The position numbers and the translations under genes were made by a program. Of a stretch of 47,256 bases of DNA, positions 263 to 38,818 are shown piece after piece. The notes beneath the pieces are model-generated. The model ran no database searches and had not been told where the DNA came from. It saw only the letters and a list, made by a program, of their open reading frames with translations. Numbering within the stretch: the stretch's first letter is position 1; every line of letters starts with the position of its first letter. The stretch lies in the IMG/VR virus record IMGVR_UViG_3300045988_140943; one strand, given 5' to 3'. The stretch is from a virus.

Positions 263-1617
263 TGGTAATAAATAAACAAATTCCAGATAGGTTCATTGAT
301 TATGTGTTTGATTGGGACTATAGAAGATATTTACTTATTGGAGGATATGGTTCAGGTAAGTCTTATGATACTGCATTTAAAATCATTCTAAAATGTTTAT
401 CTGAAACTTCTAAGGTGTTGGTTATTCGTGAGGTATATGAAACAATAAAAGAATCCTGTTTTGATCTGTTCAATGAAATACTTGAGGATATGGAACTTAT
501 TGCTGATGATGGTAATAGAAGTGAATATAAAATCAAGGTAAGAAAGAAAAACTCACCTATGGAATTTATATTCCCAAATGGATCAAGAATCATATTTAGA
601 GGTATGGATAAACCAGCTAAATTAAAATCCTTAAATGGTGTAAATATAGTATGGATTGAGGAGTGTTCTGAAATCAAATATGAGGGATATAAAGAAATAT
701 CCTTAAGACTTAGAACTCCAAATAGAAAACAACATTTCTTATTAACCTGCAATCCAATCAGTAGAAGCAATTGGGTATATAATCATTTCTTTGTACATAT
801 GGACGATGAAGGCAAGACAAGAACTATATGTGATGAGAACGAGTTCTATGAAAGGAAAACCCTGATTAAAAATGGTACATATTATCATCATAGTACAGCA
901 GATGATAACCCATTCCTTCCTAAAGAATATATCAAAGAAATAGATGATATGCAAAATTACGATCCAACATTATACAGGATAGCAAGATATGGAAGATTTG
1001 GTGCAGTAGGCACAAGAGTTCTTCCCCAGTTCCAAGTTGCAAAAGATCCAAACAAATTCAAATCAGCTATTACCAATATTCCTATGAGGTATCATTTCTT
1101 TGGGTTTGACTTTGGTTTTGAAACTTCTTATAATGCTGTTGTATCAATGGCAGTAGATGATAAGAATAAATATCTTTATATTTATGATGAGATCTATGTA
1201 AATCATATTACCGATGATAAGATGGCCACATTGGATGAAATGCTAAGAATCAAACAAAGACAAGAAGAAGGCATATACATAAATCCAATCATTGGTGATA
1301 ATGAAGATCCAAAGGCAGTGGCATTCTATCGTCAATGTGGTTATAAGATTCGTAGTTGTAAAAATAAATTTGCAGGGTCCAGATTATCCAACACAAGAAA
1401 AATTAAAAGATTTAGGAAAATTATATGTAGTCCTAAATGTAAAAACACAATAAAGGAACTGAAGGAATTAACTTATGCTACTGATTCTAGAGGTAATATT
1501 ATCTTTGATGAATTTAGCATAGACCCACACACTTTTAGTGCTATATGGTATGCCTTAGACACTTATAATGTATCGGATGTTAAAGAACGTAAATACAATT
1601 CTAAAAGAGGTGATTGA
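262..1617 (+). CDS. terL: terminase large subunit
   Basis: Walker A LLIGGYGSGKSY, Walker B-like IVWIEECSE, nuclease-domain DFGFETSYNAVV; sits between terS and portal. Confidence 0.95.
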   Translation: MVINKQIPDRFIDYVFDWDYRRYLLIGGYGSGKSYDTAFKIILKCLSETSKVLVIREVYETIKESCFDLFNEILEDMELIADDGNRSEYKIKVRKKNSPMEFIFPNGSRIIFRGMDKPAKLKSLNGVNIVWIEECSEIKYEGYKEISLRLRTPNRKQHFLLTCNPISRSNWVYNHFFVHMDDEGKTRTICDENEFYERKTLIKNGTYYHHSTADDNPFLPKEYIKEIDDMQNYDPTLYRIARYGRFGAVGTRVLPQFQVAKDPNKFKSAITNIPMRYHFFGFDFGFETSYNAVVSMAVDDKNKYLYIYDEIYVNHITDDKMATLDEMLRIKQRQEEGIYINPIIGDNEDPKAVAFYRQCGYKIRSCKNKFAGSRLSNTRKIKRFRKIICSPKCKNTIKELKELTYATDSRGNIIFDEFSIDPHTFSAIWYALDTYNVSDVKERKYNSKRGD

Positions 1618-1619
1618 TA

Positions 1620-3131
1620 ATGATGAATGATAATACCAAACCAGGATTTATATATTGTGATAGAAGAATACCTTATTCAATAATCAATGAGGAATCTGAA
1701 ACACCTATGTATGTTCAGGAAAAATTTAAAAGGGTGTTTGAATATTATGATATTTATAAAAAGGGTGCAGAATTTACAACCGAAGGAACTAATGCCGATT
1801 ACATTGCTTCTGACCTTAAGCATAAAATGTGTGCAAGGTTAATAAATAAGGAAGCCCGTTTTATGTTTGCAGAAACACCTGATATTAAGGTAGAATCAAG
1901 TAACTCTGTGGATCCAAATGAGGTGATTGCAGAATTCATTGATAATACACAAGCTTATGTTGATAAGGTACTTGAAGTGAATGATTTTGATAAGCAATTA
2001 CTCCAGGCTGCTAAGGATTGTTTCATTGGTGGTAGAATTGCTTGTATGTTAAACTTTAATGTTGAATCAGGTGTGACAATAACCTTCTTAAAATCAACTG
2101 AATTTATTGCTGAGTATAAGGAAGATCAACCAAATATTCTTAAGAAATTTGTATCATTTCAAATTATTAAGGAAAGTGATAATCTTTCTGAGGTACGAAT
2201 ATTCAAAAAGAAATATATCCTTAAACCAAGCAGAAATAACGAAGGTGAAATACAAGATATATGTTATGCTGAAGATTCTATTTATGATGGTACAGGAAAT
2301 CTTCTTGAAGTAACATATCCATTGAAGGCAACTGAATTTGACAAGATACCTGCTGCAGTGTTTGTGAATGATGGTCTTATTGGTGATGAATATGGTGAAT
2401 CTGAAATTGAGAATCTTAAAGGATATGAATCTCAATACAGTAAATTAGCTAATGCTGATGTAGATACTGAAAGGAAGACAATGAACGCTCCAAGGTATAC
2501 CATTGATATGGAACCTAATAGTACAAAGGGTCTCTCAACTAGTCCTGGTGCTTATTGGGATTTAACCTCAGACCAAAATCTGGAATCATCTAGTCCACAG
2601 ATTGGTACGTTGGAAAATACAATGAGTTATAGTACTCCACTTGATACAACGTTAAGAAGGATAAAATCCTCAATGTATGACCAAGTAGATATTCCTGATA
2701 TATCCCTTGAAAATATGTCTGGTATGATTACTTCAGGCAAAGCATTAAAATCTGTTTATTGGCCATTGATTGTAAGATGCAAGGAAAAGATGAAAACTTG
2801 GGGTCCAAAAATAAGATACCTTATTTCCTGTATTATTGATGGGGCTACTTATTATCCTCAAACAATTAAGAGGTATACTAGTCAATCAATTGTTCCATTT
2901 GAATATACAGTAAAAATTGAAATCAACTATCCATTACCTGAAGATGAACAAGATGAAAAGAACATGGACCTCCAAGAGGTAATGCAACAAACAATGTCCA
3001 AGAAATCATATATGAAAAAATGGAGACTTTTATCTGATGATAAAGCAAATGAGGAATTAAAACAAATTGCTTTGGAAAAACAACTCTTTGAAGATTCTGG
3101 TTTTTCGGAAGATGATTTTGCTAATATGTAA
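1620..3131 (+). CDS. portal protein (SPP1 gp6-like size and position)
   Basis: About 503 aa directly after terL. ATG 1620 follows AGAGGTG; the track start at 1614 is a TTG inside the terL stop region. Confidence 0.75.
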   Translation: MMNDNTKPGFIYCDRRIPYSIINEESETPMYVQEKFKRVFEYYDIYKKGAEFTTEGTNADYIASDLKHKMCARLINKEARFMFAETPDIKVESSNSVDPNEVIAEFIDNTQAYVDKVLEVNDFDKQLLQAAKDCFIGGRIACMLNFNVESGVTITFLKSTEFIAEYKEDQPNILKKFVSFQIIKESDNLSEVRIFKKKYILKPSRNNEGEIQDICYAEDSIYDGTGNLLEVTYPLKATEFDKIPAAVFVNDGLIGDEYGESEIENLKGYESQYSKLANADVDTERKTMNAPRYTIDMEPNSTKGLSTSPGAYWDLTSDQNLESSSPQIGTLENTMSYSTPLDTTLRRIKSSMYDQVDIPDISLENMSGMITSGKALKSVYWPLIVRCKEKMKTWGPKIRYLISCIIDGATYYPQTIKRYTSQSIVPFEYTVKIEINYPLPEDEQDEKNMDLQEVMQQTMSKKSYMKKWRLLSDDKANEELKQIALEKQLFEDSGFSEDDFANM

Positions 3132-3153
3132 ATAAAGAAAGTAGGTGAAAGTA

Positions 3154-5058
3154 ATGCCCCTTGAATTTGGTAAAAGTGATTTATACCACAAGAAATTAAC
3201 TGATACTGCAGAAAAGAGAATGAAGAAACTTTATGAAAATGCCTATAATAAAATCTCAAAGGAAATCAAAAAGCTTGATGAGGGTATTAACACAAAGTCT
3301 ACTTCATATCAAAAAGGGTATTTACTTGACCTCCAAAAGAAAATGAAAGCTGCTTATGACGATGTGGCTTTAGATACATTTTCCCAGGTACAGTATAACA
3401 TTAAAGATATTTCTGAGGCTGTGGTAAATGATAACGTAAAAATTCTCAATCAATATGGATTGAATATTAAGGGGGCTTTCTCTTATGTTCCAAAAGATGT
3501 AGTCACCTCTATTACTAATGGAAGTCTTTATAAATCAAAATGGACTTTATCTAGTAGAATTTGGGATATTAATAATGCTACAAACAGAGATATTAGAAAG
3601 ATAATTGCTCAAGGGATTGCAATGCAGACCCCAACTTATGATATAGCAAAAGATCTTGAAAAGTATGTAAATCCTTCTGCCAAAAAGAATTATGATTGGT
3701 CAAGGTTATATCCCGGAAGTAATAAGAAGGTTGATTATAATGCACAACGTTTGGTAAGAACAACAATAACCCATGCTTATCAACAATCAGTAAAAGAAAT
3801 AACTGAACAAAATCCTTTGTCTGATGGGATTCTTTGGTTAGCAACTGGTTCCAAAAGAATGTGTGATATATGTGCTAAAAGAAATGGTAAAGTATATGCT
3901 CCTAATAAGCTTCCTTTAGATCACCCCAATGGCCAATGCACCATGGCTACACATTTTTCAAAAACACCTAAACAAATATCTAAAGAAATGCAAGATGAAT
4001 TATCTCCTAAAAGAGATGAATTAAGAGCTAAGCTTGAGGCACTGAAAAAGAATGCTCAAGAAAAGGATTCCGGTTTTGTTGACAAGGTATTTAATGAGGA
4101 CCAACAAGAATATTTAACCCCATATGGATTTACCCCTGATAATGTTCCAAGCGATTTTAATGATTGGTCACATAAGGTATCTACTTCACAAGCTGGTAAA
4201 ATATTAGAAGATATGGGAACTAGTTGGGGTGATCCACACCCTTATCAGCAATTGGAAAAATTCTATAATAAGAAACTTGCTCCAAACAGAATGATAACAG
4301 GCGAAAAGCTAATCAATCAAGCTGAAAAATCTGCTGCTAAACAATCAATCCAAAATGAGGAAGATCTACATAAATTCATCAAGGAAAAATGGATGGATAA
4401 AATAAAAGAACAAACTGAAAGTCATATGTTAAAACTAGAAGACCAAGTTTTTGATAAACTATCAAAAAAAGAAATTGAAGGACTAAAAACTTATACAGGT
4501 AATGCTTATAGAGAAATCAATTCCTATTTAAGATTAATAGAGGGGGGCAAAACAAAAAGTCAAGCAAAATCAATTTCCCAAATTCCTGATTATTATATCG
4601 AAGCATTAAAAAATGCAAAAGGTGGACTAGATAAGGTTGAACTAGCAGAAGACTTGGTATTAAGAAGAGGAACAGATCTGGGTGATTTAGCAGGATTGCT
4701 TTCTGGGGATTTTGATAGCAATAAAAAAATGCTATATAAATTAAAATACGCATTTAATGATGATGAATTGTTTGTTAAAGAATTAAATGAACGATATGGA
4801 GGATTGCAAGGAAAACTTGCAGGATTCACTTCAACAAGCTCTTTATATGGTAGAGGATTCAATGGTGATGTGGAAGTAATATTGTATGCTCCAAAAGGTA
4901 CAAAAGCTTCCTCTATTATGCGTATATCTAAATTTGGTAAAGGTGAAGGAGAAACGTTATTAAATGCAGGAACTAATGTAGAATTTATTAAAGCTGAAAA
5001 ATCTGATGGTCATAAAGGTTCTGAGGTAAGAATCTTCCTACGAATTTTAAATATTTAA
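3154..5058 (+). CDS. MuF/SPP1 gp7-like minor head protein fused to a C-terminal R-S-E ADP-ribosyltransferase domain
   Basis: MuF part: NAQRLVRTTITHAYQQS and MCDICAKRNGKVY..LPLDHPNGQC. ART part: YTGNAYREINSYLR, LVLRRGTD (Arg), GFTSTS (STS), GKGEGETLL (ExE). ATG 3154 follows AGGTGA. Confidence 0.85.
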   Translation: MPLEFGKSDLYHKKLTDTAEKRMKKLYENAYNKISKEIKKLDEGINTKSTSYQKGYLLDLQKKMKAAYDDVALDTFSQVQYNIKDISEAVVNDNVKILNQYGLNIKGAFSYVPKDVVTSITNGSLYKSKWTLSSRIWDINNATNRDIRKIIAQGIAMQTPTYDIAKDLEKYVNPSAKKNYDWSRLYPGSNKKVDYNAQRLVRTTITHAYQQSVKEITEQNPLSDGILWLATGSKRMCDICAKRNGKVYAPNKLPLDHPNGQCTMATHFSKTPKQISKEMQDELSPKRDELRAKLEALKKNAQEKDSGFVDKVFNEDQQEYLTPYGFTPDNVPSDFNDWSHKVSTSQAGKILEDMGTSWGDPHPYQQLEKFYNKKLAPNRMITGEKLINQAEKSAAKQSIQNEEDLHKFIKEKWMDKIKEQTESHMLKLEDQVFDKLSKKEIEGLKTYTGNAYREINSYLRLIEGGKTKSQAKSISQIPDYYIEALKNAKGGLDKVELAEDLVLRRGTDLGDLAGLLSGDFDSNKKMLYKLKYAFNDDELFVKELNERYGGLQGKLAGFTSTSSLYGRGFNGDVEVILYAPKGTKASSIMRISKFGKGEGETLLNAGTNVEFIKAEKSDGHKGSEVRIFLRILNI

Positions 5059-5070
5059 TTATTAATTTTC

Positions 5071-5121
5071 TGTAAACATTACCCAAAATCTATTTACAAA
5101 ACCAGAAATCTGTGATATAAT
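5071..5121 (+). promoter_or_regulatory. consensus sigma-A-type promoter cassette P1 (upstream TGTAAACA, -35 TTTACA, extended -10 TGaTATAAT)
   Basis: TGTAAACA 5071..5078, TTTACA 5093..5098, 17-nt spacer, TATAAT 5116..5121, then a G-poor A-rich leader and cttacagaggtg SD. Confidence 0.8.
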
Positions 5122-5171
5122 ATAATTATAAAAATAAAATAAACAATTAATCTTACAGAGGTGAATAAGAT

Positions 5172-5384
5172 ATGGGTGAGAATATAAATGAAAGATATGA
5201 AAGTGAACAAAAAGCATTTATGAGAATTACTAATGATAACCTTAAATGTAAAGATTGTTTATATAAGTACGATGATACAACAATCTATGGTAATACTTCT
5301 AGATGTTCAATGTTCAATCATAAACCAGACAAAGTTATTCTTGGAGGAGAGTGTGATAAGTATGTTAAGTTCACTGGAAAATAA
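5172..5384 (+). CDS. small four-Cys (zinc-ribbon-like) protein, function unknown
   Basis: Served by the full promoter/leader/SD cassette. Cys pattern CKDC..RC..EC. Its 3' end overlaps the ARH start. Confidence 0.7.
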   Translation: MGENINERYESEQKAFMRITNDNLKCKDCLYKYDDTTIYGNTSRCSMFNHKPDKVILGGECDKYVKFTGK

Positions 5385-6258
5385 GATCTTAGGTTCTCTC
5401 TATGGTTTTGCCATAGGAGATGCAATGGGAGCTACAATGGAGTTTCAGGAAAAGATAACTGATGAATCCAAAAAGATTAAGGATTTAATTGGAGGAGGTT
5501 GGTTAAATCTTTCCCCTGGTGAAACTACAGATGATACCCAAATGTCAGTATGTGTTTTGAAGGCTTTGATGGAACAAGCTAACAATCCAGAAAAGAAATT
5601 TATGGACTTAGTTGCCAAAAATTTTATTGATTGGTTTGACTCTAATCCAAAAGATATTGGTAATACTTGTGCCAGAGTTTTGAGGGTAGCAAAAACATTA
5701 CTTGATGAGGGTAATGAAATTCATTATGTTGCAGGTAAAATGAAGCTAATTGCCTTTGATGTTAAAGCTCTTGGAAATGGAGCTTTGATGAGGGCTTTAC
5801 CTTGTGCATTGTTTAACAAGATCTGGAAAAACTTAGATCAAGCTTTTATGACCCACAATAATGTTAGTCAAGAAACTTGTATTATAACTTATGACGCTCT
5901 TATAAAGCATTTGCTTGTTCCTGTTAGTCCATTATGTTTTTCTTACGGTTTGCATTCCATATTTAAAATAAAGGAACCAATGGAACCAACTGGTTGTGTA
6001 ATAAATACAATGAATAATGCTTGTTACTATGCTCTTAATTGTAATTCCTTTGAGGAATGTATAATCAATGCAGTAAATGATGGTGGAGATGCTGATACGA
6101 TTGCTGCTATTGCAGGAAGTATTGCTGGTGCAATATTTGGATATGACAGTATTCCGAAACGTTGGAAAGAGGTATTTAAAACAAATCCTCTGAACTATGA
6201 AACAATTGAATTGTTTGAAAAGGTTCCCGAGGTTTTGGATAAGCTTAAAGTTTATTAA
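5362..6258 (+). CDS. ADP-ribosylglycohydrolase (ARH/DraG family)
   Basis: GFAIGDAMGATMEF, PGETTDDTQM, GGDADTIAAIAGSIAGA. The track's N-terminal extension from 5233 is an out-of-frame read through the upstream gene; ATG 5362 (or GTG 5353) starts the conserved domain. Confidence 0.9.
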   Translation: MLSSLENKILGSLYGFAIGDAMGATMEFQEKITDESKKIKDLIGGGWLNLSPGETTDDTQMSVCVLKALMEQANNPEKKFMDLVAKNFIDWFDSNPKDIGNTCARVLRVAKTLLDEGNEIHYVAGKMKLIAFDVKALGNGALMRALPCALFNKIWKNLDQAFMTHNNVSQETCIITYDALIKHLLVPVSPLCFSYGLHSIFKIKEPMEPTGCVINTMNNACYYALNCNSFEECIINAVNDGGDADTIAAIAGSIAGAIFGYDSIPKRWKEVFKTNPLNYETIELFEKVPEVLDKLKVY

Positions 6259-6263
6259 CATTT

Positions 6264-6314
6264 TGTAAACAATTCTTATTATCTATTTACTTTTGCCCAA
6301 TTTTATGTTATAAT
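6264..6314 (+). promoter_or_regulatory. promoter cassette P2
   Basis: TGTAAACA 6264..6271, TTTACT 6286..6291, 17-nt spacer, TGtTATAAT ending at 6314, leader plus cttacggaggtaaat. Confidence 0.8.
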
Positions 6315-6358
6315 AATATCATAAATAAAACAAAACTTAACTTACGGAGGTAAATAAA

Positions 6359-6766
6359 ATGGTTGCAATAAAGGATTGGTATCTCAACAAAATGGGTATG
6401 CTTCATATTAAAGGTTGGAGTCTTGATATTGTAAAGGAAACAGAGAAAGCTTGCTTAATATCCCACAAGTTTGATGAAAATTCTGAAATTACTTGGTGGG
6501 TCCCTAAATCAGTTATTATTGATAAGTGGGAGGTTGAAGAGAAAAATGTTTCAAATTTTGCATATCATAATTATCTAGTTGATATATATTGTAAGGCATA
6601 CGATGAAAATAAAATAGAAAACTATATTTGGAGTAATGGTTATAATAAATATAATGGTAAAAGTTTTATTCACAAGGAAACAACTAAGAAAATAAAAGAA
6701 ATCCTTGATAAAAACAATGTTGATTATATGAATAAAACAGAGTGGGTAAAGGATAGTCTGAGGTAA
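6359..6766 (+). CDS. hypothetical protein (moron between head morphogenesis and scaffold genes)
   Basis: Full cassette upstream; 135-aa ORF; no motif recognised. Confidence 0.75.
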   Translation: MVAIKDWYLNKMGMLHIKGWSLDIVKETEKACLISHKFDENSEITWWVPKSVIIDKWEVEEKNVSNFAYHNYLVDIYCKAYDENKIENYIWSNGYNKYNGKSFIHKETTKKIKEILDKNNVDYMNKTEWVKDSLR

Positions 6767-6785
6767 ATCTTCAGATTTTCTTTGT
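6758..6785 (+). terminator. weak hairpin plus T-rich tract overlapping the stop codon
   Basis: ctgagg/cttcag stem (one G-U), loop taaat, then attttctttg. Confidence 0.35.
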
Positions 6786-6809
6786 TAATAAGAAAGGTGA
6801 AAAGAGAAT

Positions 6810-24188: not shown

Positions 24189-24247
24189 AAACAATTTGTT
24201 AAATATATCATTTGCCTATTTACAAATGCCAAAATCTGTGATATAAT
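24186..24247 (+). promoter_or_regulatory. promoter cassette P5 (two upstream elements)
   Basis: TGTAAACA at 24186, TGTTAAAT at 24197, TTTACA 24219..24224, 17-nt spacer, TGaTATAAT ending at 24247. Confidence 0.8.
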
Positions 24248-28517: not shown

Positions 28518-29315
28518 ATGGGAATTTTGAGTAAAATTAAAAGTGACGTTAAGAAATCTGGTCAAAATAAAGGAAAGTTTATGTACTTTCGTGAAGGTGT
28601 GAAAACCCGTGTGAGATTCTTGACGGATATGGAAGATGGTATGGAGGTAGTCTTCCACGATAGTTACGCAGACGGCATAAATGTTCCTTGTAGAGAAACA
28701 TTTGGTAAGTCTTGTGATTATTGTGAACAGGAAGGACTCCGTACAAGAAGCCAGTATATATGGTCTGTATGGGACTACGAAGCAAAAGAAGTAAAGCTGA
28801 TTATGGCACCAGTAAATAACTGCTCCCCAGTTCCGGCATTGGTTGCTCTTTATGATACATACGGCACCCTTACTGATAGGGACTATGTAATCACAGTTAC
28901 CGGCAAGCAGCAGAATAAGTCTTTTTCTGTAATTCCAATGGATAAGGCAAAGTTCAGAAATGAGAAGGCAAAACCATTCTCACAGAAGAAGGTTTTGGAA
29001 CTTCTTGATAAAGCTTTCCCTGATGAGAATGAAGACGACGAAGATGAAGAATATGAAAAGCCAACAAAGAGAAAGCCGACAAAAACTTCTCAGAAATCTA
29101 AAGAGGTTGACGATGATTGGGAAGACGAGGACAATGAAGATCTGGACTATTCGGAAATGTCTCCGAAGGAACTTTACAAACTTTGTAAAGAAAGAGATAT
29201 TGATGTAGAGCCAAAGAAGAATTCCAAGTACTATATCAATCAGCTTGAGGAATATGACCAGGCTCAGGATGATTGGGCCGATGAAGACGACGATGATTGG
29301 GAAGACGATGAGTAA
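28518..29315 (+). CDS. putative ssDNA-binding protein (gp32-like Zn/OB layout) with HeH motif and an acidic C-terminal tail
   Basis: PCRETFGKSCDYCEQ Cys cluster, central beta-rich core, YSEMSPKELYKLCKERDIDV, tail DDWADEDDDDWEDDE. Confidence 0.5.
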   Translation: MGILSKIKSDVKKSGQNKGKFMYFREGVKTRVRFLTDMEDGMEVVFHDSYADGINVPCRETFGKSCDYCEQEGLRTRSQYIWSVWDYEAKEVKLIMAPVNNCSPVPALVALYDTYGTLTDRDYVITVTGKQQNKSFSVIPMDKAKFRNEKAKPFSQKKVLELLDKAFPDENEDDEDEEYEKPTKRKPTKTSQKSKEVDDDWEDEDNEDLDYSEMSPKELYKLCKERDIDVEPKKNSKYYINQLEEYDQAQDDWADEDDDDWEDDE

Positions 29316-29799
29316 AAACATTATTATCTTCGGTTGTGACAATTCCGGCAAAACCACATTAGCCTCTAATTTATTTTCCCGCATGATGGGTGCAGTGTTA
29401 TTCCCTCCCTTGGGCCCTGCAACCTTGGATCAGCAAAAGGCTTATCTGAAAAGAATACGGGAAAGTAAATCTAGGTGTATATGTGATAGATTCCCACCTA
29501 TAGAAGAAATGGTTTGCGGAAATGTTTTGAGAGGTACTTCTAATTTTAAAGAGGATGATCTCAAAGAATTTTTGGATTGCCAATTTATTTGGTGTAACCC
29601 AAGTTTTACCTCGATTTTAAATTGGGGCGAACGGGAGCAAATGAAGGGTGTAAAAGAAAATATTGTCCCTTTATATTTTGGGTATCTCAAAATTTTTATG
29701 AAGTTAAAAGAACTCGGTGCAGACGTATTTGAATACAACTGGGAAAAAGAAGAAGAATTTAAAAACTTGTGTTGGCATATAAATGAAAGAGGTAATTAA
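29308..29799 (+). CDS. P-loop kinase-like protein (nucleotide or nucleic-acid kinase candidate)
   Basis: IIIFGCDNSGKTTLASNL Walker A right after ATG 29308 (ATGAGTAA overlap with the upstream gene). Confidence 0.55.
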   Translation: MSKNIIIFGCDNSGKTTLASNLFSRMMGAVLFPPLGPATLDQQKAYLKRIRESKSRCICDRFPPIEEMVCGNVLRGTSNFKEDDLKEFLDCQFIWCNPSFTSILNWGEREQMKGVKENIVPLYFGYLKIFMKLKELGADVFEYNWEKEEEFKNLCWHINERGN

Positions 29800-29801
29800 G
29801 A

Positions 29802-30473
29802 ATGAATATTACTCACGCAATTCACGAAGAAGTTACTGGAGATAAGTTAGAGGCGATATTTAAAAGACAATCCGAATTGATGTTTAAGTATCATGATATT
29901 GAAAAGAGATCGGGATTGCTTCAGACTGAAGATTGTCCTGTTAATCTGGATGACAAAAGAGGACAGGCAAGAATTAAGGATTTTGCTTGGAGAGTAACTG
30001 AGGAAGTGGGAGAAGCTTTGGATGCTTATCGTAGTAGAGATGATGAACATTTCCACGAAGAACTCATTGATGGGCTTCATTTCCTTACGGAGCTTTCAAT
30101 TTTGGCAGGAATTACCCCAAAGGAAATTGTGCAAAATCTAGTTGATTCTATACCTACCCTTCCAACCGATGCTGCCAAAGATAAGGATTGCTTGGATTCT
30201 ATTTATGAATTGGCTCAGATCCAGATTTACTTGGATGGAGCAATTACTGCTTTTGTAGAATCAATTGGAATGATGTGCAATTGCCTCAAAAATAAACCTT
30301 GGAAACAGAGCAATATGGTTACAGATAAGGAAGCATTTTATAAACGTCTTTCCAACCTTTGGCTCAGTTATATTTCCGTTTTGGCAACAGCTAAGCTTTC
30401 ACCGGAAGAAGTGGTTGATGTTTACCTCAAAAAATCCCAGGTCAATAAATTCCGCCAGAGGAGTAATTATTGA
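29802..30473 (+). CDS. all-alpha NTP pyrophosphohydrolase (dimeric dUTPase/dCTPase-like)
   Basis: VTEEVGEALDA, HEELIDGLHFLTEL, NKPWKQ, C-terminal KKSQVNKFRQRSNY. Confidence 0.55.
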   Translation: MNITHAIHEEVTGDKLEAIFKRQSELMFKYHDIEKRSGLLQTEDCPVNLDDKRGQARIKDFAWRVTEEVGEALDAYRSRDDEHFHEELIDGLHFLTELSILAGITPKEIVQNLVDSIPTLPTDAAKDKDCLDSIYELAQIQIYLDGAITAFVESIGMMCNCLKNKPWKQSNMVTDKEAFYKRLSNLWLSYISVLATAKLSPEEVVDVYLKKSQVNKFRQRSNY

Positions 30474-31228
30474 TGTTGGTAAGAAAATATCAAAATCTAA
30501 CGGAAATGTTTATGGAACTTAATCGGGAGATTATTTCAAAGCCATCCCAAATGCTGGATTATGTTCATGGAATTCTTGGTTACATAGATAACGTAGTATT
30601 AGCTTCCAAAAGTTGTGACTTTGATTTTGATTTATCCAAGGTGGGTTACAAGGTTGGTAAATGGAGTCATCTACTTAGAACCTATGTAGATTATGAAGGA
30701 TTGATTGAGTTTCATAAAAAACTAGAGGATTCAACTGCTCTTTCCTTGACCTATTATTTTAAACAAAAGAAAGTGAATAATGGATCTTGTTTAATTGCCA
30801 TTGTTGTGTCTAGAAATGACCGGAAAAAGAAATGGACAAAGGTTAATGTTTTATATCGTACGACAGAAGTCCAAAGAAGATTTGCTGCTGATTTAACATT
30901 GGTGCAATCTTTTATCAAAGAACTCCCTTCCTGTTGTGAAATCAACAGAATAATATTTTACTTCCCGCAAATGTATATAAATGCTAAGGTTTTAAATGGG
31001 TATTTTAATATATTTGGAATTCCAATGGAATCCTTGGATAAATCTAGTGAATGGGTTAAAACCATGATTAGAGATTATGAATTAAATTATGTTCCGGGAA
31101 GTAGAATAACTACTTACCAATCAATTGCTAGAATGCAGAGGTTAAGGTTGGGATTGACTAAGTACGATCCATTGCCATCCAAGTCATTATCAATAAGAAA
31201 ATATTTTGAATCCAAAAAGGAGAAATAA
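30473..31228 (+). CDS. divergent thymidylate-synthase-fold protein (function unclear)
   Basis: NGSCLIAIVVSR...VNVLYRTTEVQRRFAADLTLVQSFI aligns by eye with the PCH..QRSxD..N region of the ThyA family; TGATG overlap. Confidence 0.4.
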   Translation: MLVRKYQNLTEMFMELNREIISKPSQMLDYVHGILGYIDNVVLASKSCDFDFDLSKVGYKVGKWSHLLRTYVDYEGLIEFHKKLEDSTALSLTYYFKQKKVNNGSCLIAIVVSRNDRKKKWTKVNVLYRTTEVQRRFAADLTLVQSFIKELPSCCEINRIIFYFPQMYINAKVLNGYFNIFGIPMESLDKSSEWVKTMIRDYELNYVPGSRITTYQSIARMQRLRLGLTKYDPLPSKSLSIRKYFESKKEK

Positions 31229-31230
31229 AA

Positions 31231-31917
31231 ATGAGGATATATGTAGATTGGCCTGAGTGCTATGAAGAAGTAAAAAGAGATCTTGCTGAAATGGGTATTT
31301 TGGTTAAACCAAAAACAATGCAGGATAAGGTTATTGAAAACAATGAAGCCTATGAAACAATGGAGCTTCAGAATTATTCTTACTCTCTGTTAAATGCAAA
31401 ATCCAATGCAATTACAAGGGTTGTTCAGCCTTGGGCAGATGCGGAATTTGAAGAGAGAATAAATCCTGCTGGTAATATAAACCCTGGAGAAGCTTGGAAG
31501 TTAAGGGAAGATGTATGGACTGAGTATTTGCATGATGGCAAAATGGCTTATACATACAACGAAAGAATTATGTTTAATAACCAGCTTAATAAAATCATCA
31601 AACGGCTTAAGGAAGATCGGGACTCTAGACAGCTTTGGTTGTCAATTTGGAATCCAGCTATTGACCCTGATAAACTTGGTGGTATTTCAAGAGTTCCTTG
31701 TTCTTTAGGATATAATTTCCAGTTTAGAGACGGGAAACTTAATATGCACTATGTAATGCGGAGTTGTGATTTTAACACGCATTTTATAAATGATGTATAT
31801 TTGGCTATCAAGCTTTTGGAATATGTGGCAAAGGAATGTGGTATGGAAGTGGGCTCTTTCACCCACACAATGTTCTCCCTTCACGTTTACCGCAAGGATA
31901 TTTCAAACGTATTCTAA
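31231..31917 (+). CDS. ThyA-family enzyme (thymidylate synthase or dNMP hydroxymethylase-like)
   Basis: DRDSRQLWLSIWNP..D....RVPCSLGYNFQFRDGKLNMHYVMRSCDFNTHFINDVY...SLHVY. Confidence 0.7.
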   Translation: MRIYVDWPECYEEVKRDLAEMGILVKPKTMQDKVIENNEAYETMELQNYSYSLLNAKSNAITRVVQPWADAEFEERINPAGNINPGEAWKLREDVWTEYLHDGKMAYTYNERIMFNNQLNKIIKRLKEDRDSRQLWLSIWNPAIDPDKLGGISRVPCSLGYNFQFRDGKLNMHYVMRSCDFNTHFINDVYLAIKLLEYVAKECGMEVGSFTHTMFSLHVYRKDISNVF

Positions 31918-31918
31918 A

Positions 31919-31979
31919 TGTAAATAATCTGTTAACCTATAAATTTTCTATTGACTTTCTGGGAATGGTGTGATATAAT
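31919..31979 (+). promoter_or_regulatory. promoter cassette P7 (two upstream elements)
   Basis: TGTAAATA at 31919, TGTTAACC at 31930, TTGACT 31951..31956, 17-nt spacer, TGaTATAAT ending at 31979. Confidence 0.8.
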
Positions 31980-32017
31980 ATAAATATAATAAATAAAAAC
32001 TTACGGAGGTAAATATT

Positions 32018-32665
32018 ATGAACAACAAGGAAGTTATTGAAAAGGTTAAAAAGATTCTTGCTCTTGCAGAAAATAACCCAAATGAAAATGAAGCTTTAGC
32101 TGCTGCTCTTAAGGCTCAAAAGATGATGGCTAAATTCCATATTCAGGAAGAAGATCTTAGAGATGAGGTTACTGAATCTACAATTGATTCCATCGTTGCT
32201 AAACACAATGGAAAGACTGCAAAATGGAGATTGTCTTTAGCTTTGGTTATAGCAGCTAATTTTAGATGTAGGGTTTATATACAGAATGGTAAGGATGTTT
32301 GCTTTATGGGGTACGAGGAAGATGCTGTGATTTGTAAAGAGGTATTCCTTTCTATGTATTCTATTGGTGAAAAATTATCAAACAAACTTAAGAGAGAAAC
32401 TAGAAAATCTAAAGGTACAGCTACAGGTGTTAAGAATACATTCTGTTGTGGTTTTGTTGATGGAATAAAATCGGAATTGGAAAAGCAATGTACAGCTTTG
32501 GTTTTGATTGTTCCTAAGGAAGTCAATGAAGCCTTTGAAGCAAAGACGAGTAATGTAAAAAGAAAGAAAGTTTCTTTGAAAATCTCTAATGACTCAGAGG
32601 TTTATAATAAAGGGTTTGTAAGTGGTAAGAATTCTATTCAGGCAAGGGCAATTGAAAACAAGTAA
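32018..32665 (+). CDS. DUF2786-like phage protein
   Basis: VIEKVKKILALAENNPNENEALAAALKAQKMMAKF N-terminal signature. Confidence 0.65.
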   Translation: MNNKEVIEKVKKILALAENNPNENEALAAALKAQKMMAKFHIQEEDLRDEVTESTIDSIVAKHNGKTAKWRLSLALVIAANFRCRVYIQNGKDVCFMGYEEDAVICKEVFLSMYSIGEKLSNKLKRETRKSKGTATGVKNTFCCGFVDGIKSELEKQCTALVLIVPKEVNEAFEAKTSNVKRKKVSLKISNDSEVYNKGFVSGKNSIQARAIENK

Positions 32666-32674
32666 TAAATGATT

Positions 32675-32704
32675 CTAGGAGGGTTTTCCCTCCTAGTTTT
32701 ATTT
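32675..32704 (+). terminator. rho-independent terminator
   Basis: ctaggaggg/ccctcctag stem, loop tttt, then ttttattt. Confidence 0.8.
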
Positions 32705-32718
32705 AAGGAGGGAAAAAA

Positions 32719-35466
32719 ATGGGATTTGATTTGCATAGACACGATGAGGCAAGTAGCTTTGATGGATTTGGTAAACCAACAGAGTTAGCAAGCTTGGCTA
32801 AAGAGTATGGGTATACAATGTTAGCTGTAACAAATCATGGAAATACTACTAGCTTAGTTCAGCATTATTTGGCTTGTAAAGATGTGGGGATAAAACCAGG
32901 TCTTGGGGTAGAGGGATATTTTCTTCCGAAGTATAAACCCCAAGACAGAGGGTTCCATTTAATACTGTTGGCTAAAAATGCTCAAGGTTATGCCAATATG
33001 AACCGGATCCAGTACGAAGGTGAGAAACAGAAGTATTACAATCCTATTTGGGATTTTAAAATTCTGGAAAAATATCACGAAGGGCTGATTTGTTCTACTG
33101 CTTGTGTAGCGGGATATTTAGGACAATGTATAATTAAAGGTAAGATAGAAGTAGCTGCCAAATATCTTAAAAGAATGAAGTCAATATTTGGGGAAGATTT
33201 TTATGTTGAGATTCAGCCATATTCAATTTCTGAAGAAGGCCTTCAAGAAAAGATAAATGTTAAGTCCATTGAGTTGGCGAAGAAATTGGGTATCAAGTGT
33301 ATATTAACTTCAGATTCTCACCGAGGAAGAAAAGAAGATTTTGATACTTACCTGAAGATGCACGAGATCAAAAAACCTGGTAATGCTGAATGGTTAGAGC
33401 ATGTTACAAAAACTTATAAAGAACGTTATATGCCTAAGCCTGGGGAAATGATGAAAAGATTTTATAAAATGCACAAGAGTGACTTTGGGGAGGTTGAAGC
33501 CAAAAGATTGGCTAAGGAAATGGAAAGAAACCTTGATGAAATTGAAGCTAAGGTTGAGGATGATATATTCAAGGATTTTAAACAGACCTTGCCAAAATTC
33601 TCTGAAGAGGATTCCACAAAATTGCTTGTGGAAAAGTTAAGGCAAAGCATGAAACAAAGAGGTAAAACAACAAAAGCCTATATTAACAGAGTCAAGGAAG
33701 AACTGGAGGTTATAAAGTCTTTGGGATTCCAAGATTACTTTTTGATTGTAGCAGATTATGTTAACTGGGCAAAGAAACAAGGAATTACTGTTGGACCAGG
33801 AAGAGGTTCTGCTTGCAATTGTGAAGTAGCTTATTTTCTGGGTATTACGGAGGTAGACAGTTTGTATTTTGGACTAGACTTCCGAAGATTCCTCCGTAAA
33901 GATAAAAAGAAAATGCCTGATATTGATATTGACTTTGAAAGGTGCAGAAGACAAGAAGCCATTGAATATCTCATTAACAAATATCCAGGTCATACAGCAA
34001 GGATTGCTTCCTATGGTTTGTATAAGGTTGATAATCTTATCAATGACTTGGCCAAAGTTTGTGGGTTGCCAACTGATAGCAAGGTGGATCCGGAAATTGT
34101 TAAGTATAACAAGAAAATGATTGCAGACCTTAAGTCTTTGATTAAATCTTATATTGATGAGGACGGAATGTTAGATTCTAAAGGTTTGTTGCAAAATAAA
34201 ATTTCCAGATGTTTTAATTCCGATTATGATAACATAGTAAAACACTTTACCAAGCTCTATATGAAGTTGAGGTTTATTGGAACCCACGCAGCAGGTGTTG
34301 CTGTTACTGGCGGAAACATTTTGGATTTTACTTCTTTGAGAATTGATAAGAATGGTGATATTTTTACTAGTTTTGATTTGAACGATATGGAAAATATCCA
34401 CGTTATCAAGTTTGATATGTTAGGCCTGAGGACAATGGAAAGTACAGGGGAGTTGAGGGAGTTAACTGGTTGTTCTGGAATCACAGAGGAAATCGTAAAC
34501 GATCCAAAACTCTATGAGAATTTCAGAACAGGGCAAACTGATGGTGTATTCCAGTTTGACAAGGAAGCAGTAAGAGGAATTCTGAAGGAAATCAATTGTG
34601 ATTGTTTTGGAGATGTTATTGCAGCAAATGCGATGAACAGACCTGGCCCTTTGAAGATGAAACAGCCTCAGCTTTATGCGGATAACAAATTGGAAGGCGG
34701 AACTGGATCAGCTGATGATATTTATAAATACACCAAAGATTCATACGGTACAATCATTTACCAGGAACAAATCCAGCAAATTTGCGTAGGGGTTGGAGGT
34801 ATGACTTGGGGAGATGCGGATAAGGTAATGAAGATGATTGGTGGACAATCCCAGTCAGCTGACGCTAAAGCCCAATTTGAAAGAGACAAAAAAGAACTTC
34901 ATGATAAGTTCGTACAAGGAGCTGTTAAAAATGGCTTCCCAAAATCTAGAGCAGAAGAAATCTTTGATATGGTCCTTGTATATTCCTTCAATAAAGGTCA
35001 TGCTTGTGGCTATTCTCTAATATCTTTGGAGGAGATGTATTATAAAACCTATTTCCCTTTGGAGTATTGGTACACTCGTATTAAATATGCTCCGACTGAT
35101 TCTGATTATGATAGGTTTTGTGGTAAAGCTGTGGCAAATGATGTGGTTATATTTTTGCCTCACGCAAATTATTCGGCTTCTTTTACTTCGATTAGAGTTG
35201 TTGATGGTGATAGAGTTATCCAACAAAGCCTAAATCGAATTAAAGGTGTTGGTAATAAGGCTGCTGATTTTATAGTTGAGGAAAGAAAAAGAAATGGAAT
35301 TTTTACCTCATATGATAATTTTTATGATAGATGCAAAAGCCGAGTTGTTACCACGAGAGTAATATCTTTATTGGATGAAGCTGGGGCTTTAAATTTTAAT
35401 AAGAAAAAGTATTTACAGAGAGTTGTGAAATATAACTCTAGTTTGTATGCAAAAGCTTTGAGGTGA
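32719..35466 (+). CDS. DNA polymerase III alpha-like replicase (PHP domain plus polymerase core)
   Basis: FDLHRHDEASSFDG..AVTNHGN (PHP), GPGRGSACNCEVAYFLGITEVD, PDIDIDFE, AANAMNRPGP. Confidence 0.9.
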   Translation: MGFDLHRHDEASSFDGFGKPTELASLAKEYGYTMLAVTNHGNTTSLVQHYLACKDVGIKPGLGVEGYFLPKYKPQDRGFHLILLAKNAQGYANMNRIQYEGEKQKYYNPIWDFKILEKYHEGLICSTACVAGYLGQCIIKGKIEVAAKYLKRMKSIFGEDFYVEIQPYSISEEGLQEKINVKSIELAKKLGIKCILTSDSHRGRKEDFDTYLKMHEIKKPGNAEWLEHVTKTYKERYMPKPGEMMKRFYKMHKSDFGEVEAKRLAKEMERNLDEIEAKVEDDIFKDFKQTLPKFSEEDSTKLLVEKLRQSMKQRGKTTKAYINRVKEELEVIKSLGFQDYFLIVADYVNWAKKQGITVGPGRGSACNCEVAYFLGITEVDSLYFGLDFRRFLRKDKKKMPDIDIDFERCRRQEAIEYLINKYPGHTARIASYGLYKVDNLINDLAKVCGLPTDSKVDPEIVKYNKKMIADLKSLIKSYIDEDGMLDSKGLLQNKISRCFNSDYDNIVKHFTKLYMKLRFIGTHAAGVAVTGGNILDFTSLRIDKNGDIFTSFDLNDMENIHVIKFDMLGLRTMESTGELRELTGCSGITEEIVNDPKLYENFRTGQTDGVFQFDKEAVRGILKEINCDCFGDVIAANAMNRPGPLKMKQPQLYADNKLEGGTGSADDIYKYTKDSYGTIIYQEQIQQICVGVGGMTWGDADKVMKMIGGQSQSADAKAQFERDKKELHDKFVQGAVKNGFPKSRAEEIFDMVLVYSFNKGHACGYSLISLEEMYYKTYFPLEYWYTRIKYAPTDSDYDRFCGKAVANDVVIFLPHANYSASFTSIRVVDGDRVIQQSLNRIKGVGNKAADFIVEERKRNGIFTSYDNFYDRCKSRVVTTRVISLLDEAGALNFNKKKYLQRVVKYNSSLYAKALR

Positions 35467-35470
35467 TAAT

Positions 35471-35632
35471 GTGAATAGAGATTATTTTGTAATAATGAAT
35501 GAAAGTGATGAATTGTTACATAACACAAAAATAGGCGAAGCAGACACACTTGAAGAAGCTAGGGAATTGGAAGCAAAATGTAAAAAGGCATATCCAAACG
35601 CAAAAATAAAAATATATGAAATAATCGAATGA
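35471..35632 (+). CDS. 53-aa ORF, unknown
   Basis: GTG after GAGGTGA; fills the gap to the next gene; below the track's cutoff. Confidence 0.4.
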   Translation: MNRDYFVIMNESDELLHNTKIGEADTLEEARELEAKCKKAYPNAKIKIYEIIE

Positions 35633-35663
35633 TAAATTAAAATTATATTGTGAGGCTGATGTA

Positions 35664-36197
35664 ATGAAGGTAACAATTTTGAGATACCCAACTAAAGAGG
35701 ATTGGGAACGCTGTAAAATGATGGCGATGAATACGATTGGTAAGAACTGGGCGGGTGAAGTTACTGATATCTGGAAGGATAAAATTTTAAGAGCAAGACA
35801 CTCCCCGATAAGAACTTTGATGTTTACAATTAAAATGGAAGTTCCTTATTATGTGTCCGTGCATTTTGTTCGCCACAAATATGGGGTAGAACATTATGTA
35901 TCATCCCAGAGAAATGATAGGCAAGATAAATATGATCGGCGGGAAGCTAAACAGTCAATTCCAGTGATCCATATTATGGATGTTAATGCAGAGGAATTAA
36001 TGACCATTGCTAATCGAAGGTTGTGTAATCAAGCTGATGTTAAAACAAGGGAAGTTATGAACCTGATTGTGAAAGAGGTTTTGAAAACTAACCCCGAGTT
36101 TACTCCACACCTAGTTCCCCAATGTCTTAAGTTGGGTTTGGGAATTTGTCCAGAGTTCAAACCTTGCGGGAGAATGAGCAAAAAGGATGATAAATAA
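35664..36197 (+). CDS. ThyX-like (flavin-dependent thymidylate synthase family) protein, short form
   Basis: HSPIRTLMFTIKMEVPYYVSVHFVRHKYGVEHYVSSQRN resembles the ThyX RHR..S....S.R region; 177 aa is short for the family. Confidence 0.5.
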   Translation: MKVTILRYPTKEDWERCKMMAMNTIGKNWAGEVTDIWKDKILRARHSPIRTLMFTIKMEVPYYVSVHFVRHKYGVEHYVSSQRNDRQDKYDRREAKQSIPVIHIMDVNAEELMTIANRRLCNQADVKTREVMNLIVKEVLKTNPEFTPHLVPQCLKLGLGICPEFKPCGRMSKKDDK

Positions 36198-36204
36198 ATG
36201 ATCT

Positions 36205-36235
36205 TATGCCAGTTTAAACGCTGGCATATTTTTTA
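36205..36235 (+). terminator. rho-independent terminator
   Basis: tatgccag/ctggcata stem, then ttttttaat. Confidence 0.8.
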
Positions 36236-36245
36236 ATATTTCAAT

Positions 36246-36307
36246 TGTAAATAATTTATTAACTCTTGCTTTTATCTATTGACTTTTGCAAGATTATGCT
36301 GTATAAT
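36246..36307 (+). promoter_or_regulatory. promoter cassette P8 (two upstream elements)
   Basis: TGTAAATA at 36246, TATTAACT at 36257, TTGACT 36279..36284, 17-nt spacer, TATAAT 36302..36307. Confidence 0.75.
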
Positions 36308-36357
36308 ATATACATAAACAAAAACAAAATATATAAATCTTACGGAGGTAATTAACT

Positions 36358-36834
36358 ATGAAAACTACAAAGAAAACTATGATTGCTGAAATGCTCAACA
36401 AGGTAAACGCTAAGAAGAATGAAGAAGGTAACTTCTCAATAACAGCTGAAGCTCTTGATGAACTCAGAACACTGGTTGAAGAATCCGAGATGTTCAAGGT
36501 ATGCAAGAACAAGAAGGATGAGACTTTGTTCTCTATCTATGATAAGCCTGGCAAAACAAAGTTTGTAGTCCTTAAGCTTGTCAAGAAGACAAAGAAAACT
36601 ACAAACAAAACTACAAATGGTTTTGGAACAACCAAAGGTAAGTTTAAGTTTTACTCCATTGTTATCAAAGCCTTTGGTAGTGATGAGGTTAAGGAAATCA
36701 CTTCCCTTAATACTTGTGAACAGGTAAAGGCATTTCTTAAGCAACTCAACAAAAAGAATGTAGAATTCCTTAGAATCTACTCTGAAGGCAAAGAGGTAAG
36801 AAAATCAGCTTGGATCGAAAGAATCTCTGCATAA
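36358..36834 (+). CDS. hypothetical Lys-rich protein
   Basis: cttacggaggtaatt SD cassette; 158 aa. Confidence 0.75.
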   Translation: MKTTKKTMIAEMLNKVNAKKNEEGNFSITAEALDELRTLVEESEMFKVCKNKKDETLFSIYDKPGKTKFVVLKLVKKTKKTTNKTTNGFGTTKGKFKFYSIVIKAFGSDEVKEITSLNTCEQVKAFLKQLNKKNVEFLRIYSEGKEVRKSAWIERISA

Positions 36835-36850
36835 CAAAATTAAACACTAT

Positions 36851-36874
36851 TGGCTGGTTGAAATACACCAGCCA
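36851..36874 (+). other. RNA hairpin without a T tract (processing or stability element?)
   Basis: tggctggt/accagcca 8-bp stem directly before cattacggaggtaaac. Confidence 0.5.
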
Positions 36875-36896
36875 TCCATTACGGAGGTAAACATTC

Positions 36897-37307
36897 ATGA
36901 GACTTTGGCATAAGGATTTAATCGAATATCTTCCGAGACAGCAACTGTTAGCTCAATGGAGGGAGTGCTGTTGTATAGCACGAAACATTAAAGTAAATGG
37001 TACCCCAAACCATTTGCTAGTAAACAAAATTCTTAAATACCCCATAACTCATTTTGTAACCTATTCAATGCTGGTTGCCAATGAAATGGAACGCAGGGGT
37101 TATAAGGTAGATCTTAATAAATTCACAAAATATCTTTGTGGACCATCCTATTGGACTTTTGTGCCATATGATGATTTGTTTGCCAATTGGCACGATAAAC
37201 GCTATCTTACTCAATGCTATTATAACCTGGAAGAAAAATACGATTGTGGTGGTATTCCCAAAGATGAGTGGGAAAAGGTTGTCCAAGGTTATTACAAATA
37301 TAAATGA
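36897..37307 (+). CDS. pyrimidine-dimer DNA glycosylase-like protein (DenV/TIGR02328-type)
   Basis: MRLWHKDLIEYLPRQQLLAQWRECCCIARN...NEMERRGYKV. Confidence 0.65.
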   Translation: MRLWHKDLIEYLPRQQLLAQWRECCCIARNIKVNGTPNHLLVNKILKYPITHFVTYSMLVANEMERRGYKVDLNKFTKYLCGPSYWTFVPYDDLFANWHDKRYLTQCYYNLEEKYDCGGIPKDEWEKVVQGYYKYK

Positions 37308-37318
37308 GGTTTGATAAA

Positions 37319-38564: not shown

Positions 38565-38589
38565 AATTAAATGAAAGAGGTAAATTAAA

Positions 38590-38808: not shown

Positions 38809-38818
38809 GGAGAGTGCA

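Follow-up and report, generated by a model that had tools for sequence, protein, structure and literature searches.

The DNA analysed here is the IMG/VR virus record IMGVR_UViG_3300045988_140943. The whole stretch of 47,256 nucleotides, called the window below, is a complete, circularly permuted phage genome (~47 kb, ~33% GC) in which all credible genes lie on the + strand. The subject of this work is a cassette of its head module, in which a MuF-type head protein fused to an ADP-ribosyltransferase (ART) is followed by a 70-aa protein with four cysteines (the small Cys4 protein) and by an ADP-ribosylhydrolase (ARH). The cassette is interpreted as a MuF-type polymorphic toxin with two-tier self-immunity in an apparently non-temperate siphophage, a reading to which a probability of about 0.6 was assigned. 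A preliminary description of this DNA had proposed three roles for the downstream genes: timed reversal of the modification made by an injected ART, self-protection during assembly, and removal of host defence marks. Self-protection fits best, because the small protein co-varies with the ART domain as a cognate immunity protein would and the ARH appears to act as a generic eraser.

The fusion protein and its two candidate antidotes

The fusion gene lies directly 3′ of the portal gene and extends to 5058 (+ strand, as are all cassette features given below). It begins at a GTG at 3145 (637 aa) or at an ATG at 3154 (634 aa), the latter being the start picked by gene callers in identical contigs. 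Residues 17–287 (3193..4005) were assigned to a head-morphogenesis domain of the MuF / SPP1 gp7 type (phrog_1657, E = 1.2e-49). PHROG minor-head-protein families cover the full length of the protein, and phrog_115 (minor head protein) spans nearly the whole fusion (aa 13–623). The N-domain was also matched by phrog_21401, annotated 'pilot protein for DNA ejection' (E = 1e-41). The matches to PF04233 (Phage_Mu_F; E = 0.002, 19.1 bits for a cut-off of 29.6) and TIGR01641 (E = 1.2e-6, 28.8 bits for a cut-off of 39.65) fell below the curated cut-offs, and the domain was therefore classed as a divergent MuF. With tblastn, its matches were head-morphogenesis proteins from phages of Clostridium and C. 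difficile, together with a protein of Streptococcus phage Dp-1 annotated 'minor structural protein' or 'head morphogenesis'.

The C-terminal part of the fusion (aa 431–624, 4435..5016) is an ART domain of the R-S-E type, the cholera-toxin-like or C2-C3-VIP2 class. It was recovered with PF03496 (ADPrib_exo_Tox) at E = 1.8e-16 and 60.5 bits (curated cut-off 23.4) and contains the motifs YTGNAYREINSYLR, LRRG, FTSTS and GEGETLL. The catalytic residues are intact (R508-G509, S563-T564-S565 and E601-G-E603). They align with RG, STT and EAE of Listeria Lmo0066, the best match in the PDB (chain 8za7_B), and are 93–100% conserved among 54 distinct homologues. A weak match to PHROG 802, 'Alt-like', was also obtained (E = 2e-4). 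Among cultured phages, tblastn with the ART domain gave no match at 1e-5, and megablast of positions 3000–6800 against 50,697 cultured phages gave none either. The fusion is probably an active ADP-ribosyltransferase and probably arginine-directed; its packaging and ejection and the identity of the target residue are presumed. The preliminary description had read the gene as a MuF/SPP1 gp7-type head protein ending in a complete R-S-E ART, and the domain and its motifs were found where it had placed them. It had also proposed profile searches for the ART and ARH families, and both were recovered well above the curated cut-offs. Together, the MuF N-domain, the position beside the portal in the head module, the C-terminal toxin domain and a short open reading frame (ORF; <150 aa) 113 nt downstream are features expected of MuF polymorphic toxins.

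The ARH gene (5362..6258, 298 aa) is preceded by a ribosome-binding site (RBS), GGAGGAG, at 5343–5349. PF03747 (ADP_ribosyl_GH) matched its product with E = 1.3e-45 and 156.8 bits (curated cut-off 26.2), and the motifs GDAMGATMEF, TDDTQM and GGDADTIAAIAG are present. A start at 5233, which gives the longest ORF, was rejected in favour of 5362, where the RBS, the gene call and the alignment to the start of DraG agree. The closest solved structures were DraG (2woc, E = 8e-37) and Tri1 (6dre, E = 1.5e-28). The enzyme also matched Lmo0067, chain A of 8za7 and thus the partner chain in the entry of the best ART match. ARH1 chains were matched in the C-terminal segment only (E ~8e-4). Residues E27, D57/D58, D98, D243, D245 and T246 align with DraG and are invariant in 31 homologues. 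In DraG, the catalytic E-D-D and metal-site roles are known (E28, D60, D97; GGDxDT) (PMC8120803). The protein is not an equivalog of DraG (TIGR02662, 169 bits versus 337) or of Tri1 (NF041672, 134 bits versus 490, E = 5.6e-39), and its place is in the subfamily neighbourhood of these two enzymes. It aligns to positions 67–220 of the Tri1 profile and the N-terminal extension of Tri1 is missing. Searches of cultured phages with tblastn returned jumbo phages and actinophages only, at <36% identity, and none of these genes adjoins a MuF gene. This agrees with a 2022 survey of sequenced viruses, in which ARH domains were rare in phages, the cases being jumbo phages and some actinophages (PMC9503650). 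The gene had been described beforehand as an ARH/DraG-family hydrolase whose start overlaps the small gene, and both the family and the overlap, which is 23 nt long and conserved, are borne out.

The small gene (5172..5384) has the RBS AGAGGTG at 5157–5163, and its stop runs 23 nt past the ARH start. Its 70-aa product contains exactly four cysteines (C26, C29, C45 and C61), arranged as one CxxC and two single cysteines, all conserved. No match was found in Pfam, PHROGs, NCBIfam or PADLOC, and tblastn against cultured phages returned only spurious QueE hits (E > 0.1). A word-indexed search with the small protein yielded only seven clusters and understated the family, so an exhaustive profile search was used. 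The family so gathered comprises 174 cluster representatives at 50% identity, almost all of 55–95 aa. C26, C29, K51, P52 and C61 are invariant in it and N21 and C45 nearly so. AlphaFold2 (AF2) reached a predicted local distance difference test score (pLDDT) of only 39.8 with an eight-sequence alignment; a 60-sequence alignment was used instead and gave a model with a pLDDT of 88.7, made of four short helices with hardly any strand. Foldseek found no match to this model in the PDB or BFVD, and the family profile gave nothing significant against PDB sequences (HypA, E = 0.23). The protein had been announced as a four-Cys Zn-ribbon. The four conserved cysteines stand; the label Zn-ribbon is not supported, as the model consists mostly of short helices and matched no known fold. 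The Cys4 pattern makes it a probable metal-binding protein. No sequence similarity to the N-terminal extension of Tri1 was detected.

The small domain is also found in natural fusions. In four contigs from different samples it is fused to an ARH in a context lacking MuF (L093, 1597–2652; L094, 510–1565); the 351-aa fusion stands beside GIY-YIG and DUF3987 genes and has a Tri1-like architecture. In another contig (L092, 4979–7518), the Cys4 domain forms the C-terminus of a DUF1643 protein encoded immediately upstream of genes for a bacterial-type PARG and a Macro-domain protein. This is a second context, outside a phage head module, that ties the domain to ADP-ribose erasers. A DUF6508::Cys4 fusion was found beside an integrase and a CI-like repressor (L175, 1575–2147) and a GNAT acetyltransferase::Cys4 fusion in a chromosomal context (L176, 5001–6119).

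Conservation, co-variation and the promoter island

IMG/VR was scanned with an alignment of the ARH, and the 80 loci retrieved were scored with hidden Markov models built from the window proteins. An ART lies directly upstream of the ARH in 52 of the 80 loci, and 48 carry the full triad; the triad is also present in L007–L009. Four ART-positive loci had been scored as having no small protein, and in three of them a divergent Cys4 ORF occupies the slot. At one locus with a more divergent ART (L032, 5723–5932), the slot between MuF::ART and ARH holds a 69-aa ORF free of cysteines, which may be a non-homologous replacement of the small partner. Of 42 distinct loci, 31 have a small-gene stop that overlaps the ARH start by 4–29 nt, and in seven others the two abut. 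Related cassettes in IMG/VR come from many environments. The more distant ARH loci (L073–L091) were considered as possible members of the Bacteroides Bxa group described below. This was rejected: the one inspected (L081) has 54% GC, lies near an integrase and has no MuF::ART.

Pairwise divergence was compared for four segments (MuF N-domain, ART, small protein and ARH) over 49 distinct loci. Divergence of the small protein followed that of the ART domain (r = 0.84; partial r = 0.76 with ARH and MuF N-domain controlled; Mantel p <= 5e-4). With the ARH, whose gene it overlaps, its partial r was 0.25; for the 1057 pairs whose backbone had diverged, the correlation was −0.01. The ARH instead followed the MuF N-domain (r = 0.79, partial r = 0.70). 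Agreement between clusterings, expressed as the adjusted Rand index (ARI), was 0.74 for ART and small protein, 0.22 for ART and ARH and 0.12 for small protein and ARH. When loci of the same ART clade were compared with loci of different clades, the distances were 0.51 versus 0.65 for the small protein, 0.53 versus 0.54 for the ARH and 0.51 versus 0.53 for the MuF N-domain. It follows that an ART domain and its small gene are exchanged as a unit on a conserved scaffold, despite the overlap of the small gene with the ARH gene. Such a pattern is what marks a polymorphic toxin and the immunity protein cognate to it. In these comparisons the ARH behaves as a putative generic, backbone-linked eraser. 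We put the chance that the small protein is an ART-specific cognate immunity partner at about even.

The spacer between the fusion gene and the small gene contains a sigma-A-type promoter, TTTACA-17-TGaTATAAT, at 5093..5121 (11/12 consensus positions and an extended −10), placed upstream of the small gene and the ARH gene. A generic promoter scan of the AT-rich window showed no enrichment (57 sites versus 54 in shuffles). Intergenic gaps account for 6.5% of the sequence, yet nine of the ten strongest + strand matches lie wholly within them, each 39–112 nt upstream of a gene. A promoter of at least 10/12 follows the ART stop in 39 of 51 distinct related loci, compared with ~8% of length-matched random segments. 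These promoters often share the form TTTACAAA...TGnTATAAT, and the diverged loci L007–L009, with small proteins 51–57% identical, retain TTGACT-17-TAxAxT in the spacer. Intergenic placement and conservation in related loci were the grounds for rejecting a chance match in AT-rich DNA. The claim that the small gene and the ARH gene have a full sigma-A-type promoter of their own is thus upheld. No terminator-like site was found between the ART stop codon and this promoter.

In the structural module (to ~21 kb), the only strong intergenic sigma-A sites are this one and a second (TTTACT-17-TGtTATAAT, 6286..6314) that follows the ARH gene; the only other strong match in the module, at 1106, lies within the TerL coding sequence. 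From this scarcity it follows that the late genes need another promoter type or an activator. Seven near-consensus sigma-A promoters were observed in the early/replication half (24.2–46.3 kb), at 24219, 25373, 31951, 36279, 42153, 44129 and 46320 (all +). All seven are intergenic, 39–107 nt upstream of a gene.

A second self-contained cassette occupies 6286–6787, after the ARH gene. It comprises the second promoter, a 135-aa accessory ORF (6359..6766) and an intrinsic-terminator-like hairpin with a U-run (6755..6787) just before the scaffold gene. The RNA of 6755–6787 folds at −14.7 kcal/mol (z = −3.07), and none of 200 shuffles folded as well. The 135-aa ORF has no family match except a weak one to a PHROG of unknown function and was found in the closest relatives only. 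At other loci (L012, L016, L022, L024, L030, L033 and L037), one or two extra unrelated small genes stand between the promoter and the small–ARH pair, such as that for a 223-aa protein in L012 (5132–5803); none of these extra genes has a known function. Since the extra genes vary and the 135-aa ORF is limited to the closest relatives, the slot between the MuF and scaffold genes is regarded as a cargo hot spot. The arrangement as a whole (first promoter, small gene, ARH gene, second promoter, 135-aa ORF and terminator) is a host-promoter island within the late operon. As in moron-like early islands, the cargo is flanked by its own promoters and a terminator-like hairpin. Early transcription of the cassette is what we infer from this layout, and late read-through may also cover the island.

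Genome context, lifestyle and host

The gene order of the head module is TerL (large terminase, 262–1617), SPP1-type portal (1614–3131, PF05133), MuF::ART, a 113-nt spacer, the 70-aa ORF, the 298-aa ORF and the 135-aa ORF, followed by genes for scaffold, a decoration-like protein and the major capsid protein. In the rest of the genome, Pfam and PHROGs identified DNA polymerase III alpha, a primase, RecA, a protein resembling single-stranded DNA-binding proteins, resolvases, a Cas4-like exonuclease, dUTPase, thymidylate synthase, dCMP deaminase and RNase H. A dense nucleotide-metabolism cluster was observed at 29245–39292, with a thymidylate-kinase-like gene, dUTPase_2, thymidylate synthase, a faint Thy1-like match, dCMP deaminase and a T4 endoV-like Pyr_excise gene; the same region includes a full DNA polymerase III alpha gene (32719–35466) and RecA. 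For a siphophage of 47 kb such self-sufficiency is unusual, and it may point to a modified base.

The preliminary description had recognised no integrase or repressor in this phage, and searches of the window with Pfam and PHROGs likewise found neither of these nor an antirepressor. In public metagenome assemblies, 177 indexed blocks hold the exact ARH sequence. Several of them are apparently human-associated, and none contains a contig >50 kb. A scan of 185,579 species genomes was also made, from which the best 80 of 453 hits were kept. Among these 80, the triad was present only on phage-sized contigs of metagenome-assembled genomes (L101, L105, L108 and L112). The closest chromosomal ARHs in this set, 42–50% identical, belong to Parvimonas, Finegoldia, Anaerococcus, Helcococcus and Ezakiella, and neither the small-protein profile nor the ART profile matched at the chromosomal ARH loci of these genera. 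Three such loci were inspected, on chromosomes of Parvimonas (L099, 8004–8813), Finegoldia magna (L102, 7983–8819) and Helcococcus kunzii (L114, 7962–8801); in each of them the ARH gene, 42–50% identical to the phage enzyme, stands alone amid unrelated genes. The phage gene could descend from these stand-alone enzymes; alternatively, they may point to the host, or be its counter-measure to phage ARTs. The phage is apparently a non-temperate siphophage of a low-GC Firmicute. It is probably virulent and its host probably of a low-GC Clostridia or Tissierellia type, both statements resting partly on absence of evidence; candidate hosts are Peptoniphilaceae such as Parvimonas, Finegoldia or Anaerococcus.

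Proposed mechanism, alternatives and known systems

In the proposed mechanism, MuF::ART would be built into capsids beside the portal, with its C-terminus as a predicted active R-S-E ART. The host sigma-A-type promoter after the toxin gene would transcribe the translationally coupled small–ARH pair before, and independently of, late transcription. The 70-aa Cys4 protein would be the cognate, ART-specific neutraliser, binding or occluding the ART domain. The DraG/Tri1-like hydrolase would generically strip arginine-linked ADP-ribose from proteins that had been modified anyway. With both antidotes at hand, the infected cell and the phage proteins would be kept working while MuF::ART accumulated and was packaged. 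Late read-through transcripts would cover both antidote genes too, the island ending at the terminator at ~6780. The inhibitor would then be left behind once the fusion protein was packaged or unfolded for ejection.

Several points weigh against this interpretation. Binding of the small protein to the ART is presumed from co-variation, which could itself stem in part from similar rates of evolution or from the way recombination is structured locally. The lytic lifestyle is only apparent, being read from lysogeny genes that were not found, and what a phage gains from self-immunity is harder to see in a strictly lytic cycle than in a lysogen. An eraser made early would also undo the marks of the injected ART. 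Moreover, the small domain occurs away from any recognisable ART, in the DUF6508, GNAT and DUF1643 fusions and in the stand-alone small::ARH fusion, and is therefore possibly a more general module.

The cassette might also be a writer/eraser timer, in which an ejected ART modifies the host within the first minutes and the small inhibitor and the ARH, made early, then shut it off and erase its marks. This is in keeping with the match of the MuF N-domain to a family annotated as pilot protein for DNA ejection, with a cassette promoter of the same class as those of the early/replication region and with the lack of detected lysogeny genes; Alt, too, is packaged and acts immediately after infection (PMC8120803; PMC5576092, discussion). 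Timing and ejection are both presumed in this account, however, no phage is known to use such a timer, and plain immunity accounts equally well for the co-variation of ART and small protein. Early erasure of a takeover mark also seems counter-productive unless the modification turns harmful later. A timer is considered unlikely; it can coexist with self-immunity. A bolder version was held to be distinctly unlikely: a strictly lytic writer, off-switch and eraser giving a short pulse of ADP-ribosylation, with Cys4 as a new and widely used ART-neutralising module that teams with ARH, PARG and Macro proteins in phages and other mobile elements. Alternatively, the small protein could belong to the hydrolase, as a subunit, cofactor or regulator, for instance as a metal-binding module by which the eraser is targeted to its substrates. 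Translational coupling of the two genes in most loci, the small::ARH fusions in four contigs away from any ART and the DUF1643 fusion beside PARG and Macro eraser genes all point that way. The divergence data do not: the small protein follows the ART and not the overlapping ARH (partial r 0.76 versus 0.25; ARI 0.74 versus 0.12). In addition, no small gene accompanies the close chromosomal homologues of the ARH in Parvimonas, Finegoldia and Anaerococcus; the enzyme can therefore do without the small protein. A role as hydrolase partner is judged improbable.

The remaining two explanations look beyond the phage's own ART or beyond bacteria. The small–ARH pair could remove ADP-ribosylation made by host ART defences or by toxins of rival phages or bacteria, unrelated to its own ART. 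A role for ARG-centred systems against foreign ADP-ribosylation has been proposed by Iyer et al. (PMC9503650), and it suits this idea that the ARH tracks the phage backbone and not the ART and that stand-alone ARHs and a stand-alone small::ARH fusion exist. Set against it are the position of the ARH gene, directly downstream of MuF::ART in 52 of the 80 viral loci, and the lack of a PADLOC match. The known ADP-ribosylating defences DarT and CmdT mark DNA and RNA, not protein arginine. The characterised DraG/Tri1-like enzymes cleave arginine-linked protein ADP-ribose (PMC8120803), which also counts against a counter-defence function, and such a function was rated very improbable. Finally, the ART could be an effector that lysis sets free to act on eukaryotic cells, by analogy with Bxa and its action on gut epithelial cells (PMC11699363), with immunity genes that only prevent collateral damage in the producer. 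Besides the Bxa precedent, the apparent human association of several of the 177 metagenome blocks would agree with this. No observation made here bears on eukaryotic targets, though, and the related cassettes come from many IMG/VR environments; hardly any weight was given to this explanation.

Two-tier self-immunity remains the preferred interpretation, and it matters in several respects. MuF toxins, common but of unsettled biological role, have hitherto been tied to temperate phages. Here the design of a toxin with a double antidote is seen in Firmicute phages that are apparently lytic and form a large uncultured clade, a setting in which competition between lysogens cannot explain the cassette. 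The Cys4 family offers itself as a candidate for a novel class of ART inhibitors, and a host-type promoter within a late operon offers a simple, testable rule for timing immunity ahead of toxin production.

The nearest published parallel is prophage phiBxa of Bacteroides stercoris, in which two proteins, the hydrolase BAH and the small binder Bsi, neutralise the MuF::ART Bxa (Alexei et al., 2024, PMC11699363). An analogous pairing of hydrolase and binder is known for the MuF-(p)ppApp synthetase Apk2 (Apk2/Tis1/Aph1; PMC11699363). Like Bxa/Bsi/BAH, the window cassette has a head-module MuF protein with a C-terminal ART, an adjoining ARH (enzymatic immunity) and a small non-enzymatic protein, which in phiBxa provides structural immunity. 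The two differ in host phylum, the window phage being of a low-GC Firmicute type, and in lifestyle, phiBxa being a prophage whereas no lysogeny genes were found in the window phage. They also differ in both antidotes. BAH is described as ARH1-like and the window enzyme is DraG/Tri1-like; Bsi is globular and alpha-helical and has at least 94 aa, whereas the 70-aa Cys4 partner has another size and predicted fold, and homology between them was not detected. The early-promoter island is documented and conserved here.

In Tri1, which neutralises Tre1, active-site occlusion and a DraG-like hydrolase are joined in one chain (PMC8120803). The window system resembles Tre1/Tri1 of the Serratia proteamaculans type VI secretion system (PDB 6DRE/6DRH) in that an R-S-E ART is faced by a DraG-like hydrolase and, presumably, by occlusion. 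Unlike Tri1, it uses two separate overlapping genes, with the candidate occluder in a gene of its own, and its delivery would be by the phage capsid instead of by type VI secretion. In one relative, P0145, the ARH carries a small domain at its N-terminus and so has a Tri1-like length and architecture, but the domain does not resemble the Tri1 extension in sequence.

A 2017 catalogue of MuF toxins followed by small ORFs classed 14% of them as ARTs (Jamet et al., 2017, PMC5576092). The window fusion agrees with them in its N-terminal MuF domain beside the portal, its C-terminal toxin domain and the small ORF downstream. The catalogued toxins occurred only in temperate phages and prophages and in none of the phages predicted to be virulent (PMC5576092); in contrast, the window phage and its triad relatives show no lysogeny module and are found on phage-sized contigs only. 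The Listeria pair Lmo0066/Lmo0067 offers a further likeness, the ART matching chain B and the ARH chain A of one PDB entry (8za7). That pair is chromosomal, and no MuF domain and no small Cys4 partner were seen with it; a literature search found no paper describing the pair. With T4 Alt, the fusion shares an R-S-E ART, association with the capsid and plausible delivery with the DNA, which is presumed here, and no significant sequence relationship was shown. T4 is not known to encode an eraser or an inhibitor of Alt, nor is Alt known to be fused to MuF.

The preliminary description had called the design of the cassette unusual. Its own promoter, which is conserved, stands as described; the design is less exceptional than supposed, given the precedents of Bxa/BAH/Bsi (PMC11699363) and Tri1 (PMC8120803). 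The features singled out as unusual are mostly those expected of a toxin–immunity cassette, with published precedent. What is new relative to these systems is an unannotated Cys4 family that varies in lock-step with the ART, an apparently non-temperate context and a conserved early-promoter island.

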